DNA of 64,000 bases. Source: Methanobacteriota archaeon (lineage in GTDB: Archaea; Halobacteriota; Bog-38; Methanoflorentales; Methanoflorentaceae). Shown piece by piece: positions 18,837 to 45,994 of the stretch. Under the pieces are notes generated by a model. The model was not told where the DNA came from, ran no database searches, and worked only from the letters and a program-made list of their open reading frames with translations. How positions within the stretch are numbered: the stretch's first letter is position 1; the number at the start of each line of letters is the position of its first letter. Where the stretch lies: contig CAWDSY010000007.1 of the NCBI GenBank assembly GCA_963805115.1, forward strand, positions 145,604-209,603. Reading direction: 5' to 3'. Position numbers and translations under genes: made by a program.

Positions 18837-18849
18837 GAAGGTGGAGAGC

Positions 18850-22285: not shown

Positions 22286-22366
22286 GATCAGGGTAGTCCT
22301 TGGGTCTTGCTTGATTTTTTGTCAATGCTGGCACCAAAATGAAATTCCCTGCAAATAGAGTAACTA

Positions 22367-22771: not shown

Positions 22772-23170
22772 GCCAAATAGGGATATCGTGGGACTGCAAG
22801 CAAATCTGTTAATTCTAGAGTCGTTAACAGCGGCCAAGCGAATTGGAGCGCAAATCTGAATGGACAGTCGAACTCAAGCAAAGCTCGAGGGGTACACGGC
22901 AAAGACTCTCCGCAAGCGCTAAACACTGCAGGCTTAGCTCTTCGCCCACCCGGTGGCGTCTGAAAGCTTCAGCACGAAAGGGTAATCAGAACGCCTTCAG
23001 CACAAAGTCAACCTTTATTCACGCAGTTCAGTCAGCAATAGGGGCAGGACAGGCGAAACAGACTTTTGCAAGTCTCTTCATGCTACTTTCACGCCATAAC
23101 TAAGCGACAAGTGTCTCGATAGAGTTATGGCATGAAAAGGTCTTACTTAAGGTTCGCAAAAGGGGAAAAA

Positions 23171-23464
23171 ATGGCGTTTCAATGGTTTAACATCGTGCTC
23201 ATCGCGATCGGAATCTACGTCGCCGTAGACGGCGTCGCAAGCGTATTGGTCAAACACGGACAGTACCACAACGTCTGGTTCGACGGCGAGAGATACGTCA
23301 GAACGCTGACTGGAATCGTGATAATCATTTTAGGGATCGCCGTGACGCGATTAAAAATGCCGAAACGAGAAGAGGACGCATTCAATGAGACCTTGAACGC
23401 TCTGACGCAAACCTCCACGGCTGCCTTAGAACCCTTATGCTCGAGCGCGCTGCGTTCGCGCTAA
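23171..23464 (+). CDS. Hypothetical small membrane protein
   Basis: MAFQWFNIVLIAIGIYVAVDGVASVL and a second TM (LTGIVIIILGIAV). The start is uncertain; the ORF track begins at 23132. Confidence 0.35.
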   Translation: MAFQWFNIVLIAIGIYVAVDGVASVLVKHGQYHNVWFDGERYVRTLTGIVIIILGIAVTRLKMPKREEDAFNETLNALTQTSTAALEPLCSSALRSR

Positions 23465-24747: not shown

Positions 24748-25054
24748 TTCAACCTACTATGCGTCAAAAAGAGTTTGTCCTAGACCTCATTCCGTAGAAC
24801 AGTCTTCATAAACTGGCGACGTCCTGGAGGATACGAAACGGCCTTGAAACGAATGAGAGGAGTATGCGGCTGCTACTACCTATCATAAGAACGCTCAAAC
24901 AGACAGTTTAGGCAAGAGGTAGCGAAGCCACAGCGGACGTGCGTTTCGACAATTGAATGTCGGCGCGCACTGATACGACTTGTATTTCACTTACTGGATG
25001 TAACGTAGCCTTATACATTCCGCGAAAACAGATTAGAGAGACGATCCGCATCGC

Positions 25055-25828
25055 ATGGCAAGCATTCTCATAACAGGTTGCAGGGGCGGCATAGGGCTCG
25101 ATGTGGCCTGCCGGCTGCTTAAAAGAGGACACATAGTGTATGCAACCGTTCACCGTGCGATCTCAGTGAATGACGTGCGGACTGCCCTGCGGTCCTATGG
25201 CGGGGACTTTGTGGTGGACACACTCGACATCACAAAACCCAGCGACTTTGACAAAGTGGATAACTGGGACATTGACGTGTTAATCAACAATGCGGCGATA
25301 GGCGATTCGGGACCCTTAGCGGAAATAGACCTTCAGCAAGTTGAAGCTACGTGCAAGACGAATGTTTTTGCAACGCTCCGCTTGACGCAAAAAGTGGTGC
25401 CGAAGCTCATTGAACACGGTGGTGGACGAATCGTGTTTATGGGATCAATGGCAGGTACGGTGCCAACCCCCTTCTATGCGCCCTATGGGATGACCAAATT
25501 CGCACTCGAAGGCGTCGCGTCTTCTCTCCGAACGGAATTGAAACCGTTCGGCATCAAAGTCATCATCGTCAATCCAGGGGTGTACAAGACAGGCTTCAAC
25601 GAGAGCTTCATGTCACAGAAATACGAGTGGATGGGCGCGCAGAGTCTTTACAAAGATCATATGGCATATGTGCGGCGCGCGGACCGGGTCATGAAGCTCG
25701 GGCTACCAAGCACCTGGAGCATCGCACGACAAGTCGTGAGGGCGGTGGAAGCCCGGTGGCCTAAGCGCAGGTACGTCGCTCCTGGCTGGGAGTGGGTTTT
25801 CCTTCCACTCCTTCGCTGGTTTGGGTGA
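25055..25828 (+). CDS. Short-chain dehydrogenase/reductase (SDR)
   Basis: ILITGCRGGIGLD cofactor motif, NNAAIG, YAPYGMTKFAL catalytic Y-x3-K. Confidence 0.85.
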   Translation: MASILITGCRGGIGLDVACRLLKRGHIVYATVHRAISVNDVRTALRSYGGDFVVDTLDITKPSDFDKVDNWDIDVLINNAAIGDSGPLAEIDLQQVEATCKTNVFATLRLTQKVVPKLIEHGGGRIVFMGSMAGTVPTPFYAPYGMTKFALEGVASSLRTELKPFGIKVIIVNPGVYKTGFNESFMSQKYEWMGAQSLYKDHMAYVRRADRVMKLGLPSTWSIARQVVRAVEARWPKRRYVAPGWEWVFLPLLRWFG

Positions 25829-25917
25829 AGCCTCTAAACGCGCTACTCGCTTTGCAGTTTCGTCGCGAGCGTTACCATTTTTTCGCCAAACCTCTGCACT
25901 CCTGCGACGCCTGATCG

Positions 25918-26115
25918 TCAGGTGCTCCGGGAGTAACAGACGATGAGTCTGATGGCGATGGGGATGGAAGTCGTGCCGACCTGCAAGCTGCTCAGCGCCG
26001 TTGGGATGCCAGGGATGAGGTAGCCGAAAAGCACCCCTGTGACCATCGCTAGGAATATTCATAACGTCAACAGCTCATTCAAGCGAGAGAGTCTTGCCTT
26101 AGGCTTTTCTGGCAT
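25918..26115 (-). pseudogene. ACR3 arsenite efflux permease, N-terminal remnant
   Basis: [58 protein letters not shown] aligns with residues 1-60 of the intact ACR3 at 27895..28962. Trp is changed to TGA at 26059-26061 and similarity is lost after about 60 codons. Confidence 0.7.
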
Positions 26116-26176
26116 AATAGAAGGAGATGAATCTATTGCCGTTTTATCGATACCTAATTCAACCGACAGCGGCGGC

Positions 26177-27049
26177 CTAAGGCTTTTCCCCAACTACTTT
26201 TATGCTTCTCACAGCGTTGGCAACATCTTCTAACTCTTCAGGTGCCAGGCTTAGGCTGCTCCTGACAGTTTGTGCAGTTGGATCGTTTGCAAGGCAATCT
26301 ACCGAGAGTGCAGACCCGTCAACGATTTCCACACCCTCAAACCCAGAAGCGAGTGCAATCTCATCAATGATCTTTACCCCGTGAAACCCGGCAGCCCGGA
26401 TAGTTTCCAAGTAGGCGTCTTTCATAATCGCCCCCGAGAGACAGCCAACATACGCGGCAACCGACTGCTTCACGGCATCTGGAAGCTCTTTTAGCAAAAC
26501 GATATCAGAAACGGCAAATCGCCCCCCCGGCTTCAGCACGCGGAACGCTTCGTTAAAGACCGCGGCCTTGTTAGGCGTGAGGTTGATCACGCAGTTTGAG
26601 ATAAGAACGTCGACTGAGTTGTCTGCTACCGGTAGGTGTTCTAGTTCTCCAAGTCTAAAATCAACGTTTTTGTAGCCGCCCTTACGCGCATTAGACCGCG
26701 CCTTATCGACCATTTCCGGGGTCATATCAACCCCGATTACCAGTCCGTCATCGCCGACTTTATTGGCAGCGAGGAAACAATCAAAACCCGCACCTGATCC
26801 AAGGTCAAGCACCGTCTCGCCCTTTTTCAGCGAGGCCAATGCGGTGGGATTGCCGCAGCCAAGGCCAAGATTGGCCCCTTCTGGCACTGAGTCCAGGTCT
26901 TCTTTTTTGTAGCCCACTGCCAAGCTGATGTCACTCACAAAATTGGTGCTCCCGCCGCAGCAACTATTCACGGCGAAACTGCGTGGCTCATTCTTTGCCA
27001 CTTTCGCATAGGCGTCTCTGACGGCGCCCTTAATATTCTCCTCTTCCAT
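26177..27049 (-). CDS. arsM: Arsenite S-adenosylmethionine methyltransferase
   Basis: NSCCGG, LGLGCGNPTALA, VLDLGSGAGFDCF, ISNCVINL and YVGCLSGA: the SAM motifs and all four conserved Cys positions of ArsM. Confidence 0.8.
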   Translation of the reverse strand: MEEENIKGAVRDAYAKVAKNEPRSFAVNSCCGGSTNFVSDISLAVGYKKEDLDSVPEGANLGLGCGNPTALASLKKGETVLDLGSGAGFDCFLAANKVGDDGLVIGVDMTPEMVDKARSNARKGGYKNVDFRLGELEHLPVADNSVDVLISNCVINLTPNKAAVFNEAFRVLKPGGRFAVSDIVLLKELPDAVKQSVAAYVGCLSGAIMKDAYLETIRAAGFHGVKIIDEIALASGFEGVEIVDGSALSVDCLANDPTAQTVRSSLSLAPEELEDVANAVRSIKVVGEKP

Positions 27050-27066
27050 AACAATTCACTCCTGTA

Positions 27067-27333
27067 CTAGAACGTATCCTTAAAAACAGGGCCTAAAAAG
27101 CTCTTGACCGTTGCAGAAAGTTCCTCGACCTTGATGAGAGAGATGCAGCGGACCTCGCCGTCTCGCTCACAGCTGACGGCCGCCAGCTTGTCCCCCGCCC
27201 GTATATGGGCACGGTCGCGCAGCTCCTTAGGTAGTACCATCTGCCCTCGCTCGTCAACGCTCACGACTGCTTCTACCTTGCAATTACTTTTGCCCGTATC
27301 GTCGGGCGCACAACTTAAGGCTTCTTTTGTCAT
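27067..27333 (-). CDS. AbrB/MazE/SpoVT-type DNA-binding protein
   Basis: 88-aa ORF with a swapped-hairpin core, VSVDERGQMVLPKELRDRAHIRAGDKL. Lies 17 nt upstream of arsM on the same strand. Confidence 0.65.
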   Translation of the reverse strand: MTKEALSCAPDDTGKSNCKVEAVVSVDERGQMVLPKELRDRAHIRAGDKLAAVSCERDGEVRCISLIKVEELSATVKSFLGPVFKDTF

Positions 27334-27894
27334 AGAACTCTACATAATAGTACGATTATCAGTGTATGTAAACTTTTCTGACAAATCTCAATAATGTGAA
27401 TAATGAGAGATCGTCGCAAGCTTAAACATTAGTACGCTCGTTTGTGACTTGAAAAGGTATTTGAAAGAGACTAATGTTTATGAAGTCTAGGTTATAAGCG
27501 CAGCATGATCGAGGTAGTCATCTTAATCAGTCTCGTAAACGTTGCCCTTTGGTTTTCAGCCCACAAGATTACTGTGCGAGGTTATCTTCTCTATCTCGAG
27601 TATCATTTCACGCAGAATGGTGGAGGATAAGCTCACCTCTATTCTGTCGATGACTACATCAAGCAGCTTGTTATCGCGACAGCGCAGAACAGCAGGGGCT
27701 TGCACGAAAGTTAAGATCTCAAAACCGCTGAAGCAAAGGAGCTTAAGGTTTTCCTGCACGCTGCCCCGGGTTTGTGCGAGAAGCAATAGGGCTTGTTGAA
27801 AAAGTAATATAGTTCTTTCGGACGGCTGGCAGAGCCTGTATCATGCGGCTTGCTTTGTTGAATTCTCTTCGTATTACAAAGCGTTGCTTAGGAG

Positions 27895-28962
27895 CTATGT
27901 AGCATCACTAGTAGGACTAAAGTAGCGTGTAGAAAACCAAAGCGCAACGTTGACCAAGCTTATAAGAACGGGTACTTCAATCAGTGGCCCTATGACAGCG
28001 GTAAACGCCTGCCCCGAATTGATACCGAAAACCGCCACAGCGACTGCTATCGCGAGCTCGAAATTGTTGCTCGATGCCGTGAATGCCAGCGTGGCCGTCT
28101 TAGCATAGTTGATCCTGACCCGCCAGCAGACGTAGAACGTGAGGAAGAACATAATTAGGAAAAAGAAGAGCAAAGGGATCGCAATGCGCACTACATCGAG
28201 TGGCAGCGATATAATGAGGTTCCCCTTCAAAGAGAACATTATAATGATAGTGTATAACAGCGCTATCAGCGAAACAGGCCCGATCTTCGGGACGAAACGC
28301 GTTTCGTACCATTCCCGCCCTTTAAGTTTCAACCCTGCGAACCGGGTAACGATTCCTAGAACGAACGGGATGCCGAGATAGATCGCGACAGTTTCTGCAA
28401 TCTCCACAATGGATATGTTCACTACTGTTGCCACTTGAGTTATGCCAAGCCACTGAGGCAATATTGTGATAAGGAAGAAGGCGTAGACTGAGTAGAACAG
28501 AATCTGCAAGATCGAATTCAGGGCGACCAAGGCCGCTGCGTACTCACTGTCGCCGCCAGCGAGGTTAATCCAAACGATGACCATCGCAATGCAAGGCGCG
28601 ATGCCGATGAGAATGAGCCCAACAAAGTATTCAGGATTGTTGCGCATAAAGATGACCGCGAGAGCGAACATCACGAGGGGGGCGATGATCCAGTTGAACA
28701 CAAGTCCTAAACCTAAGACCTTGGTATCCCGAAAGACCTTTCCCAACTCCTCGTAGCGAACCTTGGCCAGCGGCGGATACATCATTACGATGAGCCCGAT
28801 TGCGATGGGGATTGACGTCGTTCCTACGGATAATTGGTTGAGCGCGCCTGGGACGCCAGGGACAAAGTACCCTACCGATAGCCCTATGAGCATCGCTAGA
28901 AAGATCCAGAGGGTGAGGAATTCGTTTAGGAACGACAGTCGTCCTTTGGGTTTTTCAACCAT
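27895..28962 (-). CDS. acr3: ACR3 family arsenite efflux transporter
   Basis: 355-aa polytopic ORF with [39 protein letters not shown] and IAPCIAMV, typical of ACR3. Confidence 0.85.
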
Positions 28963-29058
28963 GTACGAAACCTTTCAATTCGTGATTCTCCGCAATTCGG
29001 TGACGAAATAGCAGTGCTTCGATACAGCCAACAGCTCGGTACAGCGATTGCGTCTTGA

Positions 29059-29301
29059 TTACCCAAGCTGACAGCAGCCTTTCCTTTTCGCCAATAGATC
29101 GTAAAGCGTGCGTCCCTTGGGCGTAAGCTCGAATTGATTTTCATTTTCTGATACAAGGCCAGATTTGACAAGCTTTGCCATTTCAGTCTCAACTATCTCC
29201 GACTTCCTTGTCCTGAAACTTTCAGCGTAGCGCCTTTTAACCGCAGGTTCCATAAGGCGCCAGAGCAGGTCGTGAGCTTCAATATTGATATCTAAGTCCA
29301 T
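29059..29301 (-). CDS. Small winged-helix-like protein with a C-terminal vicinal Cys pair
   Basis: 80-aa ORF. ...VETEMAKLVKSGLVSENENQFELTPKGRTLYDLL resembles a recognition helix plus wing. Ends in KRKGCCQLG. Immediately upstream of acr3 on the same strand. Confidence 0.5.
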   Translation of the reverse strand: MDLDINIEAHDLLWRLMEPAVKRRYAESFRTRKSEIVETEMAKLVKSGLVSENENQFELTPKGRTLYDLLAKRKGCCQLG

Positions 29302-29639
29302 TGCTGCTGCCTCTGAGCTCTATACTCGTAACACTGGCTTTTATAGATCAATCAGAAAAGAACGTTAGCTTCGGCATGATACGATCACCAAAGCCGTCAG
29401 TATAACCTTTACGATAATCTGCACAGGGCGATAATAAATTCCTCTAAAGCTTTAGCATCTTTCTGGGAGATATTTTCAAGCATTTCAGTTTTCGGCCTCC
29501 TCTAAGATAGCCTTAAGAAGCTCCTCGAAAGACTTTAAATACCGGATTTTTTCGTCTGCTATAACGAAATAGGCCTTTTCCTGAGTCATATCCTACCCAG
29601 CATCTTGTCGCAACTAATTGCTGAAAGTTGTAATAAATA

Positions 29640-29661
29640 TTGATATATTATCATATATCAA
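29640..29661. promoter_or_regulatory. 9-4-9 palindrome TTGATATAT-TATC-ATATATCAA (site 1)
   Basis: Perfect inverted repeat about 50-70 nt upstream of the small ORFs / wHTH / acr3 transcription unit (minus strand). Confidence 0.6.
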
Positions 29662-29874
29662 TGTTATGAAAACAGCTTAGCAGTAGAAGCATTACTATAC
29701 ACAAACAACATTTATTGAGAGAATGCGTCCGAACGAGATTAAGAAACGTGGGAAACGTCCGCGCTAGTCTAACTTGTTTCGCGCATTTTCAATAATTCGG
29801 CAATTTGGATAAGATCTCACCTGATGCGCTTTCTCCATAGCTTCTTGCTGTCCTATAGACTTGCATCTAAGCGA

Positions 29875-30070
29875 TTACATCGGTTGGCAACAAGCCTTCT
29901 TTTTCGCCAACAAATTATGGATGGTGAGTCCTTTGGGCGTAAGCTCGAACCAGATTGTCCTTTTCCAAGACGAGCTCTGATTTGACGAGTTTAGCCACCT
30001 CTGTCTCAACTATCTGCGACTTTCGTGCGCCAAAGCTTTCCGTGTAACGCTTTTTTATGTTGCGTGTCAA
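29875..30070 (-). pseudogene. Truncated, frameshifted paralog of the 80-aa wHTH-CC gene
   Basis: ...NIKKRYTESFGARKSQIVETEVAKLVKSELVLEKDN, then after a frameshift WFELTPKGLTIHNLLAKKKACCQPM*. It lacks about the first 15 codons. Confidence 0.55.
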
Positions 30071-30263
30071 TCGTTATCATCGCAATTCAGCTCTAACACA
30101 CGCTTTTAACAGGTAGATTCTCAATTAAGAACAACGGAAACGTATGAACATATATAAATATATAATCCTTTAGTTATATTATAGTGTGTAACTAAAAGAC
30201 TCAAAGAGCGTTAAATTCATTATTTTGAATATTAAATGTCGATATCAAGCCTAAGGTGATTAC

Positions 30264-30503
30264 ATGAAGATAAAGGTATACGGACCGGGATGCGCAAACT
30301 GCCAAAATCTAGAAAAAAATGCTAAACGAGCTGTAAAAGAAATTGGTTTAGATGTTGAAATTGTGCAAATTCAGGAGATTGACCAGATAATGGAAGCTGG
30401 AATAATTGCGACTCCCGGATTAGCAATCGATGGAGAAATAAAGTCAATGGGAAGGGTTCCGTCTGTGGAAGAAATAAAAAAATGGATTAAAGCTAAAATG
30501 TAA
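30264..30503 (+). CDS. Thioredoxin-fold redox-active disulfide protein 2 family
   Basis: 79 aa: MKIKVYGPGCANCQNLEKNA...TPGLAIDGEIKSMGRVPSVEEIKKWI. A CxxC small thioredoxin-like protein of the kind usually paired with a COG0701 permease. Confidence 0.8.
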   Translation: MKIKVYGPGCANCQNLEKNAKRAVKEIGLDVEIVQIQEIDQIMEAGIIATPGLAIDGEIKSMGRVPSVEEIKKWIKAKM

Positions 30504-30554
30504 AAAAAATATGGAAAGAAATCCAAATTCTTCGAGCAGAAAGATCCTATTATC

Positions 30555-31542
30555 TTACGTTATAGCATTGAACAAGTAGCCAATGGCAGTTATGGACACG
30601 GCCAATACGGCTATGAAGATTGCCAGGAGTTTAGGTTTCAACACTTTTCTGAGTATAATCATTTCTGGCAGGGACAACGCAGTGACCGCCATCATAAATG
30701 CCAGTGCAGTTCCGACAGATACCCCCTTATCGATGAGGACTGCAACCAATGGGATGATCCCCGCAGCATTTGAGTATAAAGGCACTCCAATCAGTACCTG
30801 CTATCGGTACCGCAAAGGGATTATTTGGACCAACATAGGTGGCGAGGAACTCTGTTGGGACATATCCGTGTATAATCGCACCTAATCCAATCGCTATTAC
30901 GACATAAGGCATGATCCTTTTCAACAGATCTTTAGTGTAATCTCTCGAGGAGAGGGTGCGTTCTTTTAAGGTCTGTTTACCCTCTTCCAGAGTCATTCCT
31001 GATGCTTCCGCTGCTTTTATTTTTTCGATCATCTCGTAAACGTAGCTCTCCACTTCACCCTCCAGTTTAAGCTTTCCAATAATTATGCCGGCTATTATGG
31101 CGATAACGAGTCCGGATATAATGTAAATGGCTGTAATTTGCCATCCCACCATGCCCCCCAATAAGACAATGGCTACTTCGTTTACCATAGGAGAAGCAAT
31201 TAGGAAGGAAAAAGTCACCCCCAATGGGACTCCGGATTCTACGAATCCTATGAAGAGCGGCACTGCCGAGCACGAACAGAAGGGTGTGATAACGCCTATT
31301 AAAGCAGCGACCACATTTCCGAGATACTCATTTCTTTTACCTAAGGCTTTTCTAACCTTTAGAGGAGAGATATAACTTCTGAAAAAGGCTATGGCGAATA
31401 TTATTACGACTAACAGGATTAGGATTTTTATGGTGTCATAGATGAAGAAGTTGACTGCACTGCCTAACGCAGACGCAGGATTTAACCCCATCAAAACGTA
31501 TGTTAAGTAATTAACAGCCTCCTGTAAAATATCCGGGACCAC
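30555..31542 (-). pseudogene. COG0701/ArsP-like permease, frameshifted
   Basis: Polytopic ORF with the TPFCSCSAVPLFIGF motif. The frame breaks near 30800 (...NPFAVPIAG | LIGVPLYSNAAGIIPLVAVLIDKG), splitting it into ORFs 30727..31542 and 30555..30785. Confidence 0.7.
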
Positions 31543-31592
31543 TGCTTACCTCATAATTTCTTGAATAGTGTCGTCCTATTCGTCCATTGCCC

Positions 31593-31967
31593 TCACTTGG
31601 TAGATGTTAGAAATTCCATCCCTTCAACCGCGGTAGCAAACGTGGTGGAGGCTAAAGCGAATCGGGTTGCAAGCAGTGCCTCCGCGATTTCTTCTTTAGT
31701 TACTCCGGCGCGATGGGCAATCTTGATGAACGTCTCAGTACAAAGGTGACACCCGACAGCCGACGAAGCAGCAATCATGATGAGATGTTTGTATTTGGGC
31801 GGGATATGGTCTAGTTGCTCCATTACAAACTTGCGCTCTTGAGCCTGCCTCGGAATCCACTCGGGGATAAGCTTTGACATCAGCACCATGGGCGTCGGCT
31901 CCTCCCCTAACGGCTTTTCCATCATCTTAAGAATTTCCTCAACTGTCATTTGCTTCTCGTCTGTCAT
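31593..31967 (-). CDS. Carboxymuconolactone decarboxylase (AhpD-like) family protein
   Basis: 124-aa ORF with HLIMIAASSAVGCHLCTETF, a CxxC motif in a CMD-type helix. Confidence 0.7.
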   Translation of the reverse strand: MTDEKQMTVEEILKMMEKPLGEEPTPMVLMSKLIPEWIPRQAQERKFVMEQLDHIPPKYKHLIMIAASSAVGCHLCTETFIKIAHRAGVTKEEIAEALLATRFALASTTFATAVEGMEFLTSTK

Positions 31968-32022
31968 TTTCGTTCTCCTTTTTCCGTTTTTTTTGCCCCA
32001 ACCGTGTTGCCACTCGGTTGGA

Positions 32023-32784
32023 TCATAGGCCTTTCGTCAGATTGCGCCTGTGAAACGTGCGAGCGAGCAGGACAAAGACAACGCTAAAACCGATAAGGAC
32101 GGCCCAGTCGAGCAGGAGCGGGATCGTCGCGCTGCCCAACAAAGCACGGTCAAATCCGTCAACGAGGTACGTGATCGGCGAACAGTACGCCGCCACTTTT
32201 GCAACCCCTTGGAGACTCGCAATCGGCACAAATATGCCGCTAATGAAGATCAGAGGAAAGCGGACGAGGTTTGAGAGCAGCATAACGTTGGAGGGGTTTG
32301 TGCTTGCCGGAGACGCAAGGAGCACGCCGAGTGCTGAGAAACAGAACGCGCCGAGCACCAGGCTTATAGCAATGATGAGACCTCCTGTGAGGCTCATTGA
32401 GTAGCCGAACGCCGCCGTTCCAGCGGCTAAGATAATGACGTTGATGATGATGCCGTATAGCATGCCCGCGACAACGTCCCCGAGAATCAGAGTGTTCACG
32501 GTCACGGGAAAGGACAGTAGCCGTTCGTAGGTGCCTGCTCGCTTCTCCCAGGGGGTTATCAAAGGGCCAACAGACGAAGCCACGAAGAACACAAACATTG
32601 CTGCAAGTCCCGGGAACAGCGTACGAAGGTCGGCGCTCCTGCCTAAGGAGAACGCGAAGAACATGAAGAGCGGAAACAGAAAGCCGAACATGAGCACAGG
32701 CGGCTTGGTGTAGTAAATGCGCATGTCCTTCTCCGCTATGAGCGCTATGCTGCGAAGGTAGCTGAGAAGGGTATTACGGGGCAT
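32023..32784 (-). CDS. ABC-2 type transporter permease
   Basis: 253-aa six-TM ORF overlapping the ATPase gene stop by 11 nt. Confidence 0.8.
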   Translation of the reverse strand: MPRNTLLSYLRSIALIAEKDMRIYYTKPPVLMFGFLFPLFMFFAFSLGRSADLRTLFPGLAAMFVFFVASSVGPLITPWEKRAGTYERLLSFPVTVNTLILGDVVAGMLYGIIINVIILAAGTAAFGYSMSLTGGLIIAISLVLGAFCFSALGVLLASPASTNPSNVMLLSNLVRFPLIFISGIFVPIASLQGVAKVAAYCSPITYLVDGFDRALLGSATIPLLLDWAVLIGFSVVFVLLARTFHRRNLTKGL

Positions 32785-33736
32785 GCGCTTTGCCCTCCGT
32801 CAAGGAAACGAAGACGTCTTCTAGACTGGCGCCTTCAATGCTCAACGCGGTGAAAGAAAGCTGCCGCCTTTCGGCGAAAGCGAAAACACACTTAGCCAGC
32901 GCATCAGGATCATCGGTGTAAAACCGCCACTTGTCGCCCGTCTGTTCCGTTCGATTCACCAAGCCGCTGCGTTCGATCTCTCCTATGTCTGTGGGTGTAT
33001 CAAACGCGACCTCAACGGATTGAGTTTCTTTGAACGCCTGCTTCAGGCGCTCAGGGGTATCAATAGCAGCTAGTGCCCCGTGGTTGATTATGCCAACCCG
33101 ATCGCACAGAGTATTTGCCTCCTCGATGTTATGGGTCGTCAAGAACACCGTTGTTCCCGCGTCGTTCATTTCCCGGATAATGGCGCGAATGAGGCGCTGG
33201 CTGTGCACGTCGAGTCCCGAGGTAGGTTCATCGAGAAAGAGTACCTTTGGGATGTGCACGAGCGCGCTTGCGATGAGTACGCGCTGTTTCATGCCTTTCG
33301 AGAACCCTTCGACGCGATCGTCCTTTCTGTCGGAGAGTTCAAACTTCTCCAAGAGCTGATCTGCACGTTCATCAACCGCCTTCCGGCGCATACCGTAGAA
33401 CCGACCCGCGAGGACGACGTTCTGTTTGGCCGTTAACTCGGTGTACACATTGCTCATCTCGGGAATGATGCCCATTTGCATCTTTGCAGCGATTGCGTGC
33501 TTTTGTATGTCAATCCCGCAGATAGCGATCTTCCCGGCATCTGGCGTGAGTATGCCCGTAAGCATTCTGATGGTCGTCGTCTTTCCTGCACCATTGGGGC
33601 CGAGAAACCCGAACAGCTCACCTTCAGGAACGCTAAATGAAATGTCTTTAACCGCCGTGACTGCACCGAACTGCTTGGCCAGACCAATCGCCGAAATGAC
33701 CTCATTATGTTCTTGTTTCATTGTTGCTCGACTCAC
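32774..33736 (-). CDS. ABC transporter ATP-binding protein (ABC-2/daunorubicin-resistance type)
   Basis: Walker A GPNGAGKTT, signature FSKGMKQR, Walker B LFLDEPTSGLD, plus the C-terminal domain of this subfamily. The alternative ATG is at 33721. Confidence 0.85.
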   Translation of the reverse strand: MSRATMKQEHNEVISAIGLAKQFGAVTAVKDISFSVPEGELFGFLGPNGAGKTTTIRMLTGILTPDAGKIAICGIDIQKHAIAAKMQMGIIPEMSNVYTELTAKQNVVLAGRFYGMRRKAVDERADQLLEKFELSDRKDDRVEGFSKGMKQRVLIASALVHIPKVLFLDEPTSGLDVHSQRLIRAIIREMNDAGTTVFLTTHNIEEANTLCDRVGIINHGALAAIDTPERLKQAFKETQSVEVAFDTPTDIGEIERSGLVNRTEQTGDKWRFYTDDPDALAKCVFAFAERRQLSFTALSIEGASLEDVFVSLTEGKAHAP

Positions 33737-33815
33737 GGTTTATCGCGCTCAGTCAAACCGGGAAACTACTTCGTTCGTCGGCGACTTGTCATTGCTCCCC
33801 TCAAATAACGATATA

Positions 33816-33837
33816 TTAATATATTAACATATATCAA
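33816..33837. promoter_or_regulatory. 9-4-9 palindrome TTAATATAT-TAAC-ATATATCAA (site 2, one mismatch)
   Basis: Located 80-100 nt upstream of the ABC ATPase start (minus strand), between it and the arsR stop. Confidence 0.5.
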
Positions 33838-33956
33838 TGTTGTGAGAGTGCCTTTAAATAACGCTGATTCTCTCACCGAGTAAAAACGACGTCTAAAACC
33901 GATCAGAACCCGCTACGTTCTGAAAAAATTGATCAGAGCTGAGCCATGTTCGCGCG

Positions 33957-34340
33957 CTAGTCCAACTCGTCGAGCGCTTCTAAAAGCGTTTTAAGACGAT
34001 CGCCCGCAAGTCGGTGGAAGGTCCATTTGCCTTGGCGTCGTTCCACGACAAGGTTGGCGTCTTTGAGTATGCGCAGGTGGTGTGACACAGCAGACTGCTG
34101 TGCATCAAGAAGGAGCATAAGTTCGCAAACGCAGAGCTCATGTCGTCTCAGAGCTTTGATGATTTTAAGTCTTGTTGGATCGGCTACAGCCTTGAGGGTG
34201 CGTGCCTGTTTGTATGTGTCACGCGCGTTAATCTCCTCGGCAATTTCCTTTAGCGTAAGTTGACGCTCCTCGACGTCGATGTTGTATGCCTCTGCGAAGT
34301 TTTGAAGCGATTGAATCGGGTTGTCAATCTTCATAGCCAT
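33957..34340 (-). CDS. arsR: ArsR/SmtB family metalloregulator
   Basis: KAVADPTRLKIIKALRRHELCVCELMLLLDAQQSAVSHHLRILKDANLV: a wHTH with the ELCVC metalloid-binding motif. An ATG at 34340 (RBS-like AGAGGG) is preferred over the track start at 34385. Confidence 0.85.
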   Translation of the reverse strand: MAMKIDNPIQSLQNFAEAYNIDVEERQLTLKEIAEEINARDTYKQARTLKAVADPTRLKIIKALRRHELCVCELMLLLDAQQSAVSHHLRILKDANLVVERRQGKWTFHRLAGDRLKTLLEALDELD

Positions 34341-34373
34341 CCCTCTAAAAGATACATTTTGTTGAAGGTATAA

Positions 34374-34389
34374 ATATATGATCATATAT
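34374..34389. promoter_or_regulatory. 16-bp perfect palindrome ATATATGATCATATAT in the arsR promoter
   Basis: Lies 34-49 nt upstream of the preferred arsR start and overlaps a TATA-like tract. Its half-sites resemble the arms of the 9-4-9 palindrome. Confidence 0.45.
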
Positions 34390-34539
34390 GTGCGGTTTTC
34401 ATATCGCTAATGAACACTTTCTTGCGTTTGGCGACCCCTCGTTTGTTCGCAAAATGAATCGCATGTAAATACAGCGCAGAACGTCAGGAGGGTCGCGTTT
34501 GATGGTTGTAACTGATGCTTCAACTTCTCATTAAGAATA

Positions 34540-34561
34540 TTGATATATGACAATATATCAA
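34540..34561. promoter_or_regulatory. 9-4-9 palindrome TTGATATAT-GACA-ATATATCAA (site 3)
   Basis: Perfect inverted repeat 48 nt upstream of the HEAT-repeat gene, in the divergent arsR / HEAT intergenic region. Confidence 0.6.
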
Positions 34562-34608
34562 TGCAATATTGCTAGACAGCGCATTCAGTTTCTAGCGATG
34601 CGAGCACA

Positions 34609-34932
34609 ATGACAACTGCACCAACTGTTGCTGCGTTAATTGCTGCATTGAATGATCGAAGCCCGGCCGTTCGAAAGAGAGCTGCAGAGACTCTCGGAGA
34701 GCTGGAAGAAGTGCATGCGGTTGAACCCTTGACGCGCGCTTTAAAAGATAGTGATACCGACGTGCGTGTACATGTTGCTCTTGCGCTGGGGATGATAGGC
34801 GATATGAGCGCGACGGCACCCCTCACCTACGCGTTGAAAGATGAAGAAGATGAAGCTGTCAAGGGCGCACTAGAAACCGCGTTAGATATGGTTAAACAGA
34901 AAATCATGGGCAAAAAAATGCGAGTTCTTTGA
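34609..34932 (+). CDS. HEAT-repeat (PBS-lyase-like) protein
   Basis: 107 aa with three repeats of the form L..AL.D....VR..AA.ALG (AALNDRSPAVRKRAAETLGEL, RALKDSDTDVRVHVALALGMI, YALKDEEDEAV). Confidence 0.7.
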   Translation: MTTAPTVAALIAALNDRSPAVRKRAAETLGELEEVHAVEPLTRALKDSDTDVRVHVALALGMIGDMSATAPLTYALKDEEDEAVKGALETALDMVKQKIMGKKMRVL

Positions 34933-35038
34933 CGCCAAATGAGATGCGTTCAGAAGGAATGTTAACAAAATCTAAATCAAAGTTAGGTATCAGAGACCCG
35001 AATGGATCCGCTGGCAGTTAAGCAATAAGAGGATACAA

Positions 35039-35401
35039 ATGAGCGATAATGGCCGGCAAATCCTTCTCCTGACGTGCTCAGGGGTTTCTCATACAGGAAA
35101 GCTCACCACTAGGACCGGAACATGGCTCCGATACCGACATCCGAAACTGATTACTCGTCATCTACAACTTACCACCTTAAAACGTCCGCTGGATAAGGAA
35201 CTCCGGGAAGACGAAAATCTCGTTGCAGTAGACGGATGTGAAGAATGTTGTATAAAAAAGAGAATGGATGCGATCGGAACGAAGCTGGATATTTACATTG
35301 TTGTAACACGGGAAGGAATCATTAAACGTGGGATGGAAGAGGCTCGGCCAGAGGAGATTGAAACTCTCTCCCAAGTCATCGTGAGAAAAGCGACGGAATA
35401 A
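35039..35401 (+). CDS. DGC-domain putative zinc-binding protein
   Basis: 120 aa with LLLTCSGVSHTG and VAVDGCEECCIKK, matching the conserved DGC motif and Cys pattern (family recalled from memory). Confidence 0.55.
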   Translation: MSDNGRQILLLTCSGVSHTGKLTTRTGTWLRYRHPKLITRHLQLTTLKRPLDKELREDENLVAVDGCEECCIKKRMDAIGTKLDIYIVVTREGIIKRGMEEARPEEIETLSQVIVRKATE

Positions 35402-35672
35402 ATGATAAATGCCTACTGGTAAGCAAAATAATCGCCATCCACAGCAACGAATCATGTAGGTACAGGGCGAGACAGGCTTTTAGCCCACGTCGCCTATTAT
35501 AATAATCAAACGGTCGCAGATTCTCGTAACGAATTCAAAAACAGCATTGCCAAAATTCAAGCTCAAGCGGGTTTCTTTATCGAGGGGGGCGATAGATCAC
35601 GATAAGCATCGCTAATGAGATCAGCAGTCAAGAAGGAGAAAAACATTTTTTCAGGAAAAAAGAGGAGAGCAA

Positions 35673-36203
35673 ATGTTACTTAGAGACTATACGTTGAGGT
35701 TAGTTCTCTCAGACTGTTGTCCTTCATCTCAAGAGGTGAACGCCCTCGTGGATCTGCCTGAGGATATAAGCGAAGTATTTCCCTACCTCAACACAGTTAT
35801 GAAAGGATTGCAGTATGATCATAATGAGAGAGTCTTAACCGTTAGGCGAGAACGACGCTTAATAACCTTTAGACCACGACAAATAGCAGTGGCAAAACTA
35901 GAGGACGAAAATGAAGCAAGGTCGGTCATAGAAGAGCTGAGAGAGATTGTGAATGAGACTTATGCGAATAGAGATCATATCACACCGACCTACACCTCCA
36001 GACCGACCCCCCGACCTCTTGATGTCTATACGCTGCTTCCGGGAAACAACTGTAAGGAGTGCGGGGAACTAACCTGTTTGGCTTTCGCTTTAAACTTGGT
36101 TAATGACAAAGTGAAATTAACCCAGTGTCCATTACTTTTCAAAAAGGAATTTGAGGTAAATCGCTCCAAATTAAAGGATTTTTTGCCAGACTCGGCAACG
36201 TAA
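35673..36203 (+). CDS. Protein with a C-terminal RnfB/CdhD-type putative Fe-S cluster domain
   Basis: 176 aa. C-terminal CKECGELTCLAFALNLVNDKVKLTQCP fits C-x2-C-x4-C-x16-C. The N-terminal 120 aa are unassigned. Confidence 0.55.
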   Translation: MLLRDYTLRLVLSDCCPSSQEVNALVDLPEDISEVFPYLNTVMKGLQYDHNERVLTVRRERRLITFRPRQIAVAKLEDENEARSVIEELREIVNETYANRDHITPTYTSRPTPRPLDVYTLLPGNNCKECGELTCLAFALNLVNDKVKLTQCPLLFKKEFEVNRSKLKDFLPDSAT

Positions 36204-36319
36204 GAGCCAGCGGAACAGGTACCTAGGCAAAAAAATAGATGGAAAGCGTGACGCACGCTACCCAGCCAAATAGGCGCTCCTTAAGTCAGCACCAGAAGCG
36301 ATTGCGTGATAAAGAGGAT

Positions 36320-37147
36320 CTATGAGCCTTTCTTACCCCTTATCTCGCTCCTCATCGAGTTTTTTGAGGTCACATCTCCGACAACAAACCCGTCATAATC
36401 AAATTGCAGCTTATCATCAGCCGAACTCGAAGGATCCTTCGCCTTATTGACTTCCGATATCTCAGCGGTCCCTTCGGGTTCAGTTACCTCTATCCTTCTC
36501 GATCGCCGCGGCCTTGAGTTAAGGCTTGATAGGTTACCATCCGTGTGATGAACTACCGGGGACTCGCCGCTGAGCGGAGTCCTATTGCTTGAACTGCTGT
36601 CTCTGGGCCCATGGCCGTCCCCGAAACGCAAGACCTGCATAAGCAAAAAGCCGAGGACGGTTAAAAGGAGCGTATAAAGCACTAGATCGCTCCACGGATA
36701 TCCGGCGACATTTTCAGTAATTGCATACTTACGTGAATCAATGATGAGATGACTGGCCACGATGGCAAATACCGCGTAACCTGCGACTAGTGCAGTCTTC
36801 GGGCGACGCACGAAAGGCACGAAGGCCGCAAGGAAGACGATCGGCAGCAAAGCAAGGGAATGAGAGATCTCGATGCCAAGCGCTCGTGCCATGTCCGGTA
36901 AGAAGGCTATGAACGGCACCACGATCAGGTAGCGATAATTTAGGATCGGGAGGACGATGCATATGGGCAGCGCTACGTGGACGAGGATTTCATAGCGCTC
37001 TCTTGCCGGCCCATCAAACCAGAGAAGGAAGATGAGCAACTCAGCAACAATCGCGACAGTAAGCTTGAGGAGGTCGGCTTGAAACGCTCGTCTCTCGTAT
37101 TGCTTCCTTTGATCTGTCGGATAGTAAGAGGCTTCATAAGTGTTCAC
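36320..37147 (-). CDS. Hypothetical membrane protein (possibly DUF457-like membrane hydrolase) with a Ser/Pro-rich cytoplasmic tail
   Basis: 275-aa ORF with about five TM segments carrying conserved-looking His/Asp positions (ISHSLALL, SHLIIDSRKY). The family assignment is weak. Confidence 0.45.
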   Translation of the reverse strand: MNTYEASYYPTDQRKQYERRAFQADLLKLTVAIVAELLIFLLWFDGPARERYEILVHVALPICIVLPILNYRYLIVVPFIAFLPDMARALGIEISHSLALLPIVFLAAFVPFVRRPKTALVAGYAVFAIVASHLIIDSRKYAITENVAGYPWSDLVLYTLLLTVLGFLLMQVLRFGDGHGPRDSSSSNRTPLSGESPVVHHTDGNLSSLNSRPRRSRRIEVTEPEGTAEISEVNKAKDPSSSADDKLQFDYDGFVVGDVTSKNSMRSEIRGKKGS

Positions 37148-37215
37148 GCTGACCTTGAACCTCTAGAAAATGAGCCACTACGTCGTGCGTTAGTATCGCG
37201 AGCAAACTTCTCAGC

Positions 37216-37869
37216 CTAATAGAATAAAAAACGCTGGTTTATCAGGTAGATGCCGACGATAAGGAGCACCAATCCTGCAGCTCGTTTTATCCAAATAGTG
37301 TTTGCAGTCCTGGCAACGAGAGATGATGACAGCTTCGTCGAGTACGCAACGGCTAGCATCGGGACAGCGAACCCGAGCGAGTATACCAGGAGAAGGAAGC
37401 CACCAGTTAGCACATTTCCACGTGCGGCGACCCATGTAAGTATCGCGCCTAACACAGCGCCGGTGCACGGTAACCAGATGACCCCGAGCGACATGCCGAG
37501 CAACAAGCCGCTGATAACTCCTTCTCTCGGAAGGTTATACGATCGTTTTGAGACGGCATCGACAAACCCCAGTCGCGGAGCGTTATACGGTAAGTGCAAG
37601 TCGAACAACATCCAGACGCCAATGATCATCACGATGATTATGGCAATTACGTCCAGGTACCACGCGACGCTCTGAAATACTGAGCCGAATGCGGACGCTA
37701 ACAACCCCATAGCGGTGAATGACATACTGAGTCCCAGAACGATTGCGAGCGGCCGCCATTTCCCACCGTCCGTCGATGATGCCATTACCGCTGGAAGTAC
37801 GATAAGTACGCACGGCGTGAAGACGCTTACAAGTCCCGCTCCAAAAGCGATCAAAGGGTTTACTTCCAT
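37216..37869 (-). CDS. ccdA: CcdA/DsbD-type thiol:disulfide transmembrane electron transporter
   Basis: 217-aa six-TM ORF with the two conserved Cys motifs VSVFTPCVLIVLP and VIWLPCTGAVLG. Confidence 0.8.
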   Translation of the reverse strand: MEVNPLIAFGAGLVSVFTPCVLIVLPAVMASSTDGGKWRPLAIVLGLSMSFTAMGLLASAFGSVFQSVAWYLDVIAIIIVMIIGVWMLFDLHLPYNAPRLGFVDAVSKRSYNLPREGVISGLLLGMSLGVIWLPCTGAVLGAILTWVAARGNVLTGGFLLLVYSLGFAVPMLAVAYSTKLSSSLVARTANTIWIKRAAGLVLLIVGIYLINQRFLFY

Positions 37870-38288
37870 TGTCGCGCGTCCTCAATCGTGTTCGTTAGGG
37901 TTTGCTCATCCGTTACTCCAACACTCTTCGCAACTGCGCCATCACTCCTTATCACAATAGTTTCCGGGACGGTCGTCACGCCATAATTCGTAGCTTTACC
38001 CGTTCTGTCCGTCAACGGGTTAATCATTAGGATCGTAACTCCAGTCCCGTTGTACTTGGTCTCGAGGTGTGAAATGATCACTTTCTGCTCCGCACAGAGT
38101 GTGCAGTTCATTCCGAAGTACAACAAGACCGGTCCCTTTTTTAAGAGTGCGGTTATATCAGAGGGGTGCGACGTGCCTCCTACGAAGGTCAGCTTGTTTC
38201 CTGAGGTCTCGGTAGTGCAGCCGCTCACACTTATTATAAGAACGCTCAGCAAAGCTAACGCTACCAACGTTTTTAAACTGTCATTCAT
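37860..38288 (-). CDS. TlpA-like extracytoplasmic thioredoxin-fold lipoprotein
   Basis: Signal/lipobox LLSVLIISVSGC and thioredoxin motif YFGMNCTLCAEQ. The ATG at 38288 forms an ATGA overlap with the upstream gene's stop. Overlaps ccdA by 10 nt. Confidence 0.7.
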   Translation of the reverse strand: MNDSLKTLVALALLSVLIISVSGCTTETSGNKLTFVGGTSHPSDITALLKKGPVLLYFGMNCTLCAEQKVIISHLETKYNGTGVTILMINPLTDRTGKATNYGVTTVPETIVIRSDGAVAKSVGVTDEQTLTNTIEDARQWK

Positions 38289-38542
38289 TGTTTCACTTGG
38301 GTTTGCTGTGCTTGAATGAGCCAATCTGCAATCTCTTGCTTGCTTGGCAAGCGACCGAACGCCTTGACCTCTTCATTGATGACTAGCGCAGGAACCGCTA
38401 AAACAGGGTATTCTAATATGTCCCGTTGTTGCGTGACCTTATTCACTGTGGCGTCAATGTCTTGTTCGGCGACCACGTCGCGAACCATCTGTTCAAGGCT
38501 GTTGCACCTTGCGCATCCCATTCCCAGAATCTTGACTTCCAC
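38285..38542 (-). CDS. Thioredoxin-fold redox-active disulfide protein 2 family (second copy)
   Basis: 85 aa: MEVKILGMGCARCNSLEQ...VPALVINEEVKAFGRLPSKQEIADWL, a paralog of 30264..30503 with higher GC content. Confidence 0.75.
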   Translation of the reverse strand: MEVKILGMGCARCNSLEQMVRDVVAEQDIDATVNKVTQQRDILEYPVLAVPALVINEEVKAFGRLPSKQEIADWLIQAQQTQVKQ

Positions 38543-38555
38543 GACGTTACCCTTT

Positions 38556-38573
38556 CGCGTATTACAATACGCG
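38556..38573. promoter_or_regulatory. 18-bp perfect palindrome CGCGTATTACAATACGCG
   Basis: Lies 14-31 nt upstream of the GTG start (38542) of the thioredoxin-like gene, as either a DNA operator or a 5-prime-UTR hairpin. Confidence 0.4.
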
Positions 38574-38808
38574 ATTTATATCTACACATTTGCATATATC
38601 GATATTATAAATAGTTGTGGATTCGCCTCGTTTAAGTCAACACTTTTGTCACGAAAAACTTTAGAGAAAAAACAACAGGTGAAGCGCGGTACCGCTTAAA
38701 AAACATGACTTTGTAACACATCGCCCTTCTTGCAGAAGCCACGCTGCACACTCAAGCCGGCTCAGCGTTCTTTCAGCGTAAAATTTTTCGACTAATATCG
38801 ACAGAGGC

Positions 38809-39246
38809 TCAAGGATCCTGAGAAAAGGTGGCCTCGATCCATTCTTCGATTCGGTCGCGCACACGCCTAAAAGATGTGCACGATGCACCGTCAGGCCCTG
38901 CGTCTACTAGAGGATCGTCAAAGTCGTGATGGATGTACTCGGTTCCTCCGGGGATAATGGCTCCTGGGAAAATGGGGCATCTCTCCTGGGCACGAGCACA
39001 CATGGTCACGACATAGTCAAAGGATGCGTCGAGATACTCGTCGAGTGGCTTAGCGCGTTGAGAGGCAATATCGATGTTCTTCTCTGCCATCACTTCGACA
39101 GCACACGGGTGAACTTCGGTCGGTTCGCTACCGGCGCTGAATGCCTCGTATCGATCGCTGTGCAGGGCGTTGACGAACCCCTCGGCCATCTGCGAGCGTG
39201 CTGCATTGTGGGTGCATAAGAATAGGATCCTCTTCTTGTCGTCCAT
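38809..39246 (-). CDS. arsC: Arsenate reductase, LMW-PTPase / thioredoxin-coupled type
   Basis: ILFLCTHNAARSQMAEG P-loop with downstream Cys residues, 145 aa. Confidence 0.85.
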   Translation of the reverse strand: MDDKKRILFLCTHNAARSQMAEGFVNALHSDRYEAFSAGSEPTEVHPCAVEVMAEKNIDIASQRAKPLDEYLDASFDYVVTMCARAQERCPIFPGAIIPGGTEYIHHDFDDPLVDAGPDGASCTSFRRVRDRIEEWIEATFSQDP

Positions 39247-39527
39247 TGTGCTCTTCCGATATTCCAGTTAAATTGATCAAAATCAGTTTCGAAGCTGCTT
39301 ATGCTCAGTGACTATATAATTGCTACCTCCGTAGTTTAGTGACAATTTCGCTTCTAGATATGATTAGGACGAACTTTGATCTTCGATTTGTGATTTCACG
39401 GAACTCGCAGTTCTTATTGTGGCGAGAAGTTGTTTGATATAGGCGACGTTCCCAACAAAATGTGAATGCTTATACTCTTCAGATCGGTGGGGTCCCGCGA
39501 TGTTTAGCGAAAACAAAAGTCTATCGA

Positions 39528-39770
39528 CGTGTGAAGGCGGAGGATTCAGCGTCCAACGTAGCGCTTTCTGGATTTCTGTCAGCACTTTTTTGCGTGGCTG
39601 CGCTGCGAGACGTGACAACAACCAGGAAGGCAAGCGCAACCACGACGGTCCGATTTATTCGCTCAGAAGCCAATAGGGCTAGCTAATTATGAAGAAAGAA
39701 AGAGCTATGGCGAGACTGGGATCCATTTCGTCCTTTCTCTTACATCACGCGACTATTAGAAAGCTGCCAT
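39528..39770 (-). mobile_element. Module copy C: strongly decayed paralog of copies A and B
   Basis: In the copy A-equivalent frame it reads ...LALLASERINRTVVVALAFLVVVTSRSAATQKSADRNPESATLDAESSAFTRR*. Copy A has LAGLPTKIYQTVHEGALAFLVVISS...KASAFTRRR. The 16 nt CCTCCGCCTTCACACG are identical to the tRNA-Val anticodon arm. There are in-frame stops near the ATG at 39770. Confidence 0.5.
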
Positions 39771-40272: not shown

Positions 40273-40296
40273 GCCGCACTTCGCAACGACACCGAA

Positions 40297-45993: not shown

Positions 45994-45994
45994 T

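Follow-up and report, generated by a model that had tools for sequence, protein, structure and literature searches.

A relic of a self-splitting tyrosine integrase gene and half of a tRNA-Val attachment core as a probable recombination scar between arsC and purE of a peat archaeon

We analysed a 64,000-nucleotide (nt) stretch of contig CAWDSY010000007.1 from a Methanobacteriota archaeon of the Bog-38 lineage (assembly GCA_963805115.1, positions 145,604 to 209,603), here called the window. The element in question is a short tRNA-like sequence on the minus strand between arsC and purE, which an earlier note had read as the third copy (copy C) of a module present twice more in the window (copies A and B). 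We found that copy C is very probably an inert recombination scar. It would consist of the last ~110–145 nt of an int(N) pseudogene and the left half of an attachment-site (att) core, both left by an integrase that splits its own gene on integration into tRNA-Val. The earlier observation was partly confirmed and its interpretation partly supported. The module, which had been left unidentified, appears to be Int(N), the N-terminal half of a split-on-integration tyrosine integrase. The integrase family behind the scar appears not to have been described before; a limited search of the literature gave no description of it.

Copy C carries the 16-mer CCTCCGCCTTCACACG on the minus strand (39543->39528). 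This 16-mer is identical to 17909->17894 in copy A, the anticodon arm as the earlier note had said, and the tRNA is tRNA-Val(CAC). The copy B equivalent (22458->22443) has 2 mismatches, and the window holds 3 matches to the 16-mer against 0.03 expected by chance. We built a DNA profile of the family from 66 module copies of other genomes, leaving the window sequences out, and cut a second version to end before the 16-mer. The cut profile matched copy C at 39638–39547 (E = 1.3e-5, nhmmer) and the full profile at 39661–39522 (E = 1.7e-12, nhmmer). The protein profile of the family matched 39518–39664 (i-E = 0.0014, hmmsearch). Without the 16-mer, the copy C region was 81% identical over 72 nt to the copy at locus L024 (E = 1.7e-10, blastn). 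The similarity thus extends beyond the 16-nt core, to which the note had considered it might be limited, and copy C, as proposed there, is related to A and B but degenerate.

Module similarity in copy C was detectable over the final third of the module alone (~110–145 nt, 39673–39528), with none upstream of ~39673. The frame quoted for copy C in the note was correct, and its translation ends in ...LLASERINRTVVVALAFLVVVTSRSAATQKSADRNPESATLDAESSAFTRR followed by a stop. Copy C does not have the complete frame from start codon through att that defines int(N) membership, as the stop lies directly after ...FTRR. The ATG at 39770, previously taken as the start of the module, is not its start, because its DNA is conserved upstream of purE in strains without C (39717–39770 is 100% identical to the purE-upstream DNA of L149). 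Copy A retains both arms of the att core dyad and forms an 8-bp hairpin, with the stem strands around a 7-nt loop (minimum free energy, MFE, −9.7 kcal/mol; z = −2.9). Copy C has the left arm and loop only and forms no hairpin (MFE −0.9 kcal/mol, z = 0.28). The loop TTCACAC is presumed to be the overlap region of the att core. Copy C lacks the right arm, a start codon and Int(C), the C-terminal half of the integrase, and therefore does nothing today; it is in itself an ordinary, inert integration scar. The 91-amino-acid (aa) open reading frame (ORF) at 39364..39639 crosses the relic in a different frame and is plausibly a wrong-frame reading of it.

The copy A protein had 303 homologs, all 80–176 aa long, from 'Halobacteriota/Methanomicrobia' peat metagenome-assembled genomes (MAGs; bog_38, fen, SPRUCE, MFD), closed chromosomes included. 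These homologs share ...YPTIRLPHTFSKLAGLPTRIYQTVHEGALAFLVV..., followed by a variable linker, then (SVFTRRR or PALTWRR)SPVRIRPSP and finally unrelated tails. The (SVFTRRR or PALTWRR)SPVRIRPSP string results from in-frame translation of a tRNA-Val(CAC) or (GAC) 3' half. We used the intact tRNA-Val(CAC) of a related genome (L060, 2506–2579) as the reference for copy A, where 17905–17860 corresponds to tRNA positions 28–73 (anticodon stem, loop TTCACAC, variable loop, T arm and 3' acceptor strand). The copy A 16-mer runs on as GGCGGAGGTCGCCGGTTCGAATCCGGCCGAGCCCA, with no tRNA 5' half there. Nucleotide diversity at codon positions 1/2/3 was 0.23/0.15/0.55 in the module core, which indicates selection at the protein level, and was flat in the att part (0.23/0.18/0.25).

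Two elements show the gene continuing across att. In L058, a 45-nt direct repeat (532–576 and 10328–10372) comprises tRNA-Val(TAC) from the anticodon loop to 3 nt past its 3' end. The repeats bound a 9.8-kb element with a D5-like primase-helicase and GmrSD, in which int(N) is antisense to the tRNA. This element (L058 532–10372) corresponds to about 2527.6–2537.4 kb of Methanospirillum purgamenti NZ_CP075546.1. L054, from a MAG, has 47-nt tRNA-Val repeats 6.2 kb apart. Upon joining of the ends across the repeats, we obtained single ORFs of 456 aa (L058) and 442 aa (L054). Their C-terminal 315–330 aa, Int(C), contain ...AYTGQR..., HYVP.HP, GDLRKF.EQ, THGVSG and ...HYK. A distant module homolog lies antisense to, and overlaps, an intact tRNA-Val in L058, L054 and L019.

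Strong Int(C) homologs were found at many Bog-38 loci, often directly 3' of a window-type module and on the same strand (L065, L048, L008, L028, L062, L046). P0189 (412 aa, L068), at the edge of a Prim-Pol element, is a single frame that spans the whole module, att, the linker and the beginning of Int(C), and further ORFs run in frame across att (P0363, P0397, P0376, P0361). An ORF of 537 aa in L024 comprises an intact-looking tRNA-Val(GAC), att, an acidic linker of ~200 aa (SFFLES...TRIMAQKKHNKDKKLHN...) and the catalytic region. Because frames cross att and the rejoined ends of L058 and L054 restore ORFs, the module would be the Int(N) part of an integrase with the att site inside its own gene.

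We assessed Int(C) by profile and by structure. The L024 integrase matched PF00589 (E = 5.2e-7; 30.0 bits, above the 27.1-bit cut-off). Database homologs of Int(C) are annotated 'integrase' or 'tyrosine-type recombinase', many of them with a precomputed PF00589 match. The AlphaFold2 (AF2) model of a 312-aa member had a pLDDT (predicted local distance difference test score) of 84. It matched Cre, Tn1549 Int, lambda Int(75-356), XerH and IntI with Foldseek probability 1.0 (E from 2.8e-5, ~300–340 columns), and the matches span both the core-binding and the catalytic domain. In alignment A6, the residues R382, K413, R481, H504 and Y514/Y523 are invariant and ordered as in R..K..R..H..Y; the His of the HxxR box is not conserved, and these residues are putatively catalytic. 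By profile match and fold, Int(C) is a tyrosine recombinase.

Taken as a mechanism, the family would be a tyrosine integrase of peat archaea (Bog-38 lineage, related to Methanomicrobia) and of Methanospirillum. The full integrase would comprise an ~85-aa N-terminal beta-rich domain of predicted DNA-binding type (the module), ~18 aa encoded by att (FTRRRSPVRIRPSP), a long acidic linker, and Int(C) as a Cre/lambda-Int-like core-binding and catalytic region. The att inside the int gene would be tRNA-Val from the anticodon stem to the 3' end, of the CAC, GAC or TAC isoacceptor. Integration into tRNA-Val would regenerate the tRNA beside Int(C) and split the gene, with Int(N) and a tRNA 3' half left behind at the opposite end of the element. 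We observed an intact tRNA-Val at one element end in L058, L054, L060, L019 and L065. In L060, L019 and L065 this tRNA is followed, 3.5–7.7 kb on and on the same strand, by int(N) with or without a tRNA 3' half.

Repeated integrations and decay may then have produced arrays of same-strand int(N)/att scars bracketing captured genes. We counted 87 int(N) copies in 63 loci; 22 loci had more than one copy, all on one strand in 19 of these, and Int(C) lay within 1.3 kb 3' of an int(N) copy in 7 cases. The arrays of the window would be copies A, D, B and C (D is described below) around genes for transport and arsenic resistance; the conserved int(N) core may have served repeatedly as the recombination point. 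Side observations at related loci bear on such arrays. L001, a close relative of the copy A region, has three int(N) copies: two separated by ~150 nt, of which the second carries a tRNA-Val(GAC) half, and one 4 kb further on (10001–10738 and 14426–14654); the 3' part of an int(N) copy there is mosaic relative to the window. L013 has three full int(N) copies within 5.8 kb (2063–7809). In L046 (2347–2438), a 92-nt 'tRNA-Leu(caa)' called by ARAGORN overlaps an int(N) end, and the att there has a different T arm (GGGAGTTCAAATCTCCC); this is either a false call or an att from another tRNA.

The tRNA identity in B and C stops at the same nucleotide, after CACACG (G39), as had been noted earlier. Among 55 copies with a recognisable loop, our script found that 26 continue through the reference tRNA 3' half and 29 do not. 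Of the latter, 7–8 have a complete 3' half that belongs to another type, in most cases TAC. Truly broken copies number about 19 in other genomes plus B and C, and their identity ends 0 to ~9 nt after the loop. The view of the break as a defined point therefore held, in that it recurs across the family after TTCACACG. IntSSV1 cuts the strands at the borders of the anticodon loop, its overlap region (PMC8371274), and because of this the B/C break would sit where a tyrosine recombinase crossover is expected. By this analogy, strand exchange would occur at the anticodon loop, with the loop as a 7-bp overlap and the stem strands as inverted core sites. The breaks in B and C may reflect recombination of att in the loop region with a non-tRNA or variant partner.

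The earlier note had B and C continuing into different, unrelated sequences; we found their tails to be homologous. The shared tail starts with YCGAYA (YCGAYAAT in most copies; TCGATAGA in C) and has a 47–95-nt spacer. It is followed by a second anticodon-arm-like box, (A)CGTCGCC-TATATCA(-GGCGAAGGTCGCCG), with tRNA-type left context and a non-anticodon loop. The tail of C was 80% identical to that of L025 over 46 nt (E = 3e-5), and the tail of B is homologous to L020, L024, L025, L019 and L059. The same tail follows broken copies in L019, L020, L025, L011 and L059, and in L024 and L010 the module is joined directly to the TATATCA arm. We rejected the spacer as a tRNA-Val(CAC) promoter region, as its alignments to the L060/L065 upstream sequence were not consistently above shuffles (z −0.6 to 3.7; B not at all).

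A shared tail is also what would be expected if the breaks in B and C were not recombinase crossovers and arose by ordinary decay (indels in an att/tRNA relic) or by one ancestral rearrangement copied with its flanks. B, C, L019, L020, L025, L011, L023 and L022 all run on from the break with the same bases (YCGAYA, mostly YCGAYAAT). The TATATCA box is often common to them too, and many of the seemingly independent breaks may descend from one event. In L024, which is orthologous to B, neither the first core nor the spacer is present, a pattern that a deletion between two stem repeats could have left, and other junctions in the region are microhomology events (13-nt repeats, GCGCTTGCC). However, other subfamilies break in the same 9-nt stretch and run into different sequences (GAC-type AGCGA..., GGCGG/..., GGCGT...). 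The right end of the tail, moreover, lies at the T-stem/T-loop border, which is another classical crossover site. The stretch in which the breaks fall is exactly the stem/loop border used by IntSSV1 (PMC8371274). We regard decay or a single event as a possible account of the breaks, though on balance an unlikely one.

The module might also be a stand-alone small AbrB-like regulator beside the att of tRNA-Val-integrating elements and no part of an integrase. All 303 of the 303 homologs are short ORFs, and the copy A protein matched no family in Pfam or NCBIfam. The AF2 model of the module (pLDDT 62) has a beta-beta-alpha-beta-beta core, and AbrB/MazE-like proteins took the top Foldseek ranks (VapB1, C56 of pSSVi, MazE and C68 of pSSVx; E 1.2–3, non-significant). 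Int(C) alone, in addition, already has Cre-like core-binding and catalytic domains. However, the frame crosses att into the linker and Int(C) in P0189, P0363, P0397, P0376 and both reconstructed elements. The linker SFFLQS..TRIM..KKHNKDKKLHN is conserved 3' of att, both after modules and after intact tRNAs leading into Int(C), and no stop codon ends the module before att. We consider a stand-alone regulator improbable. A scan of IMG/VR for episomal copies of the module gave no relatives.

The purE locus gives the relative age of copy C. L154 1–5821 corresponds to window 8935–14767 and L154 5923–12570 to window 39629–46273, with ~100 nt between them; window 14768–39628 is therefore a variable region. 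By Pfam, its cargo comprises a MacB/ABC transporter, DUF169, a glycosyltransferase, SDR, an ArsM-like methyltransferase, ACR3, ArsP, an ABC-2 transporter, ArsR, DsbD, thioredoxin and ArsC; it also holds A, D, B, C and an inverted Int(C) relic. L154 PurE is 92% identical to window PurE, and L154 keeps the 5' part of relic C (about 39673–39629) beside purE, ending ...CGAATACATCGGCCGTCGTGGCTGCGCTTGCC. In L151 (PurE identical, 96.7% nt identity), relic C is common down to 39614. Beyond this point L151 carries another linker, then a complete 3' half of tRNA-Val(TAC) type and what is left of an Int linker. The note had held that conservation of C upstream of purE in genomes without the island would speak against it. 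Such conservation was found for the 5' part (~39673–39629, in L154) and not for the rest of C.

Four loci with 100% identical PurE (L149, L150, L152 and L153) lack ~16760–39716 (~23 kb), including 39716–39528, and keep 139 nt of purE-upstream DNA. The deletion is bounded by imperfect 13-nt direct repeats, GAAATGGA(T/G)CCCA, and a 95-aa ORF (16490–16777) is fused to the purE-proximal repeat. This ~23-kb polymorphism looks like a microhomology deletion. Because the 5' part of C is common to diverged lineages with different or no downstream content, C would be an old scar after which the sequence was repeatedly exchanged or lost. On this comparison of loci, copy C appears to be an old scar at a recombination hot spot that did not arrive with the arsenic island. 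A metagenome scan with PurE gave only relatives of at most 56% identity, of no use for synteny, and an exact look-up of the window ArsC found it not on record.

Conservation beside purE could mean that C is a functional purE-upstream element (promoter, leader or small ORF) whose likeness to the module is secondary. Window 39730–39629 is indeed kept beside purE in L154 (about 90% identity) and L151. But the four loci with identical PurE do without 39716–39528, and the family profile still recognises the conserved part as module. We judge such a function very improbable. Split-tRNA halves or an intron-containing tRNA-Val, with the 62–75 nt of B from CACAC(G) to GGCGAAGG as the intron, would fit the resumption of tRNA-like sequence after the insert in B and the compensatory C-G to T-A change in its stem, but we give this practically no credence and ruled it out for B and C, as no tRNA 5' half lies near A, B, C or D, neither ARAGORN nor Rfam (E <= 1) called a tRNA in 16700–40000, the upstream sequence codes for protein and shows codon periodicity, neither B nor C is followed by a T arm, and no bulge-helix-bulge pairing is evident.

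Several points weigh against copy C as a scar of a self-splitting integrase. We found no intact full-length sense-oriented (window-type) integrase of ~600 aa. A search with P0189 against 1.84 billion cluster representatives likewise returned fragments only and no intact ~600-aa sense-type integrase. L065 and L048 each join int(N) to Int(C) out of frame, and P0189 is a truncated ORF. The window holds no intact tRNA-Val (ARAGORN gave only tRNA-Leu(CAA) at 10077–10159) and no intact Int(C) (tblastn). The models point weakly to a fold for the N-terminal domain (pLDDT 62; Foldseek E at least 1.2), and the cleavage positions are placed by analogy with IntSSV1. A simple crossover of att with a secondary site does not account for the tails of B and C (spacer and TATATCA box). 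Finally, the island boundary relative to L154 (39629/39628) lies inside the relic at the 9-nt GCGCTTGCC and could equally be a microhomology deletion in L154.

Archaeal integrases of the SSV type were reportedly described by She et al. in 2001–2004. Also called 'type I' or 'suicidal', they include IntSSV1/SSV2, Int-pTN3 and Int-pT26-2 (PMC7253208; PMC8371274). The family described here resembles them in having att inside the int ORF, in an att-encoded peptide that would belong to the protein, and in a split of int upon tRNA integration that puts int(N) at one element end and int(C) at the other, with the tRNA regenerated. Hybrid and out-of-frame int(N)/int(C) junctions, and int(N) plus tRNA-half scars that bracket captured genes, are further likenesses.

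The differences lie in the enzyme, the hosts and the arrangement. PF16795 (Phage_integr_3) is the domain given for all known suicidal families, which form a single clade, and the suicidal system is described as a feature of hyperthermophiles in an account without mention of Methanomicrobiales (PMC8371274). In contrast, the catalytic part here matches PF00589 and not PF16795 (0 of 8 Int(C) members at E <= 10); it is set apart by profile and structure matches. The Int(C) profile had no match among PDB sequences at E <= 10, which would include SSV1 Int and XerA among solved recombinases, and Int(C) is structurally closest to Cre, Tn1549 Int and lambda Int and not to SSV1 Int. Hosts here are mesophilic peat archaea and Methanospirillum. 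The split here would remove only an accessory N-terminal domain and linker, leaving a complete core-binding and catalytic protein. The gene occurs in two orientations relative to the tRNA. Badel et al. (2020) found zero tandem integrations in their data sets (PMC7253208), whereas same-strand tandem arrays are common here.

Like lambda-type integrases, the protein would have a small N-terminal DNA-binding domain, a core-binding domain and a catalytic domain, and modelled Int(C) aligns to lambda Int 75-356. Unlike them, it has a predicted beta-beta-alpha-beta-beta N-terminal domain of weak AbrB/MazE-like resemblance, with att in the coding linker between this and the core-binding domain. 'Gene capture' by trapped integrated elements in archaeal chromosomes was reportedly put forward by She, Peng, Zillig and Garrett in 2001. 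Decayed elements bordered by int fragments and partial tRNA repeats, with cargo genes fixed in the chromosome, fit that description. The arrays of the window differ from it in lying away from any intact tRNA and in being polymorphic between near-identical strains via microhomology deletions.

Table 1. Features of the window that belong to the integrase scars and the variable region at purE.
Feature	Position	Strand	Remarks
Variable region, class-V aminotransferase gene to purE, 24.9 kb	14768..39628		Missing from L154
Copy A, intact int(N) frame running in frame through complete att	17860..18165	-	Family profile E = 1.9e-81 (nhmmer)
Copy D, 3' third of int(N), tRNA-Val(GAC) type	21184..21302	-	Ends ...CCCGCCTTGACACGACGG/CTACTGG; found with family profile
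Relic of Int(C) catalytic-domain C-terminus (MSTHGVSGIHWKHYKHSLPEHVYEGL; THGVSGIHWKHYKHSLPEHVY)	21374..21490	+	Inverted relative to int(N) copies; frame read from sequence
Tail of B	22368..22442	-	47-nt spacer, then box ATATCGCC-CATATCA-GGCGAAGGTCGCCG; new junction at T-stem/T-loop border
Copy B, int(N) pseudogene broken after CACACG	22443..22712	-	TAG at codon 40 and 1-nt deletion; E = 8.7e-68 (nhmmer); two frames detected by hmmsearch
Tail of C	39435..39527	-	Spacer (~77 nt) starting TCGATAGA, then box AACGTCGCCTATATCA (39450-39435) cut right after its 7-nt loop
Half att core of C	39528..39543	-	Linker CCT, left anticodon-stem arm CCGCC, 7-nt loop TTCACAC, G39; right arm missing
Copy C, 5'-truncated dead int(N) relic	39528..39673	-	Module nt ~165-272 plus 36-nt linker insertion; stop codon directly after core
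13-nt repeat GAAATGGATCCCA	39717..39729	-	Partner GAAATGGAGCCCA at 16759-16747

Other features of the window are listed with these in Table 1. Scanning the window with the family profile added a fourth relic, copy D, to the three copies counted earlier (21294–21184; nhmmer E = 4.8e-9 for the full and 3e-4 for the cut profile). The adjoining Int(C) relic was 50–60% identical over 30 aa to Int(C) of L054 and L058 (E = 2e-4 to 2e-5, tblastn), and both sit between an ABC ATPase gene and DUF169. The copy A ORF extends by chance to 17680. We also observed a motif, GCGG(A/C)TAATCACAACGGTTA, ~30–50 nt 5' of the int(N) ATG in A (18191–18212, minus strand) and B (22740–22761, minus strand). It is present in many homologs as well, where over-extended ORFs translate it as ...RLITT(I/V)K..., and it may be an int promoter, an operator or an arm-type site.

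Between the end of the copy A tRNA half and the 95-aa ORF, overlapping ORFs of 106 and 168 aa (16978–17783, plus strand) look like one frameshifted gene; the 168-aa ORF had no Pfam match. The arsenic/redox set is compact (26177–39246) and consists of an ArsM-like methyltransferase, ACR3 (SBF family), an ArsP permease, an ABC-2 transporter, ArsR, a DsbD-like protein, thioredoxin and an LMWP-type ArsC. GC content falls to 0.41 around 29–32 kb.

We tentatively consider a wider reading, which we think rather doubtful. The family may be a second, independently evolved split-on-integration lineage, in mesophilic archaea, with a PF00589 Cre/lambda-like catalytic part and an AbrB-like N-terminal domain. 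Since a complete core-binding and catalytic protein would be left after the split, Int(C) alone may retain some activity. Integration would then fall short of being 'suicidal', and the family would act in effect as an integron-like gene-capture platform that shuffles cassettes. If this reading were true, cassettes with tRNA-Val half-sites at their borders could go on being shuffled by Int(C) copies, or by int(N)-att-int(C) genes rejoined within tandem arrays. The loops TATATCA and TCAGCGA of the variant cores would represent switched overlap sequences, and the platform here would be carrying arsenic resistance.

The integrase family would account for hundreds of unannotated 'hypothetical' ORFs of 90–170 aa in peat-archaeal MAGs, as int(N) fragments fused to tRNA-Val halves. 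Such fragments would serve as a marker for the borders of captured gene blocks, for example the arsenic-resistance set. Integrases with att in their own gene have so far been described as one PF16795 clade, mainly in hyperthermophiles, and a PF00589-type family in mesophilic relatives of methanogens would widen this picture. With three tRNA-Val isoacceptors as apparent targets, two orientations and tandem arrays, the family would be natural material for how such enzymes switch sites and survive splitting.

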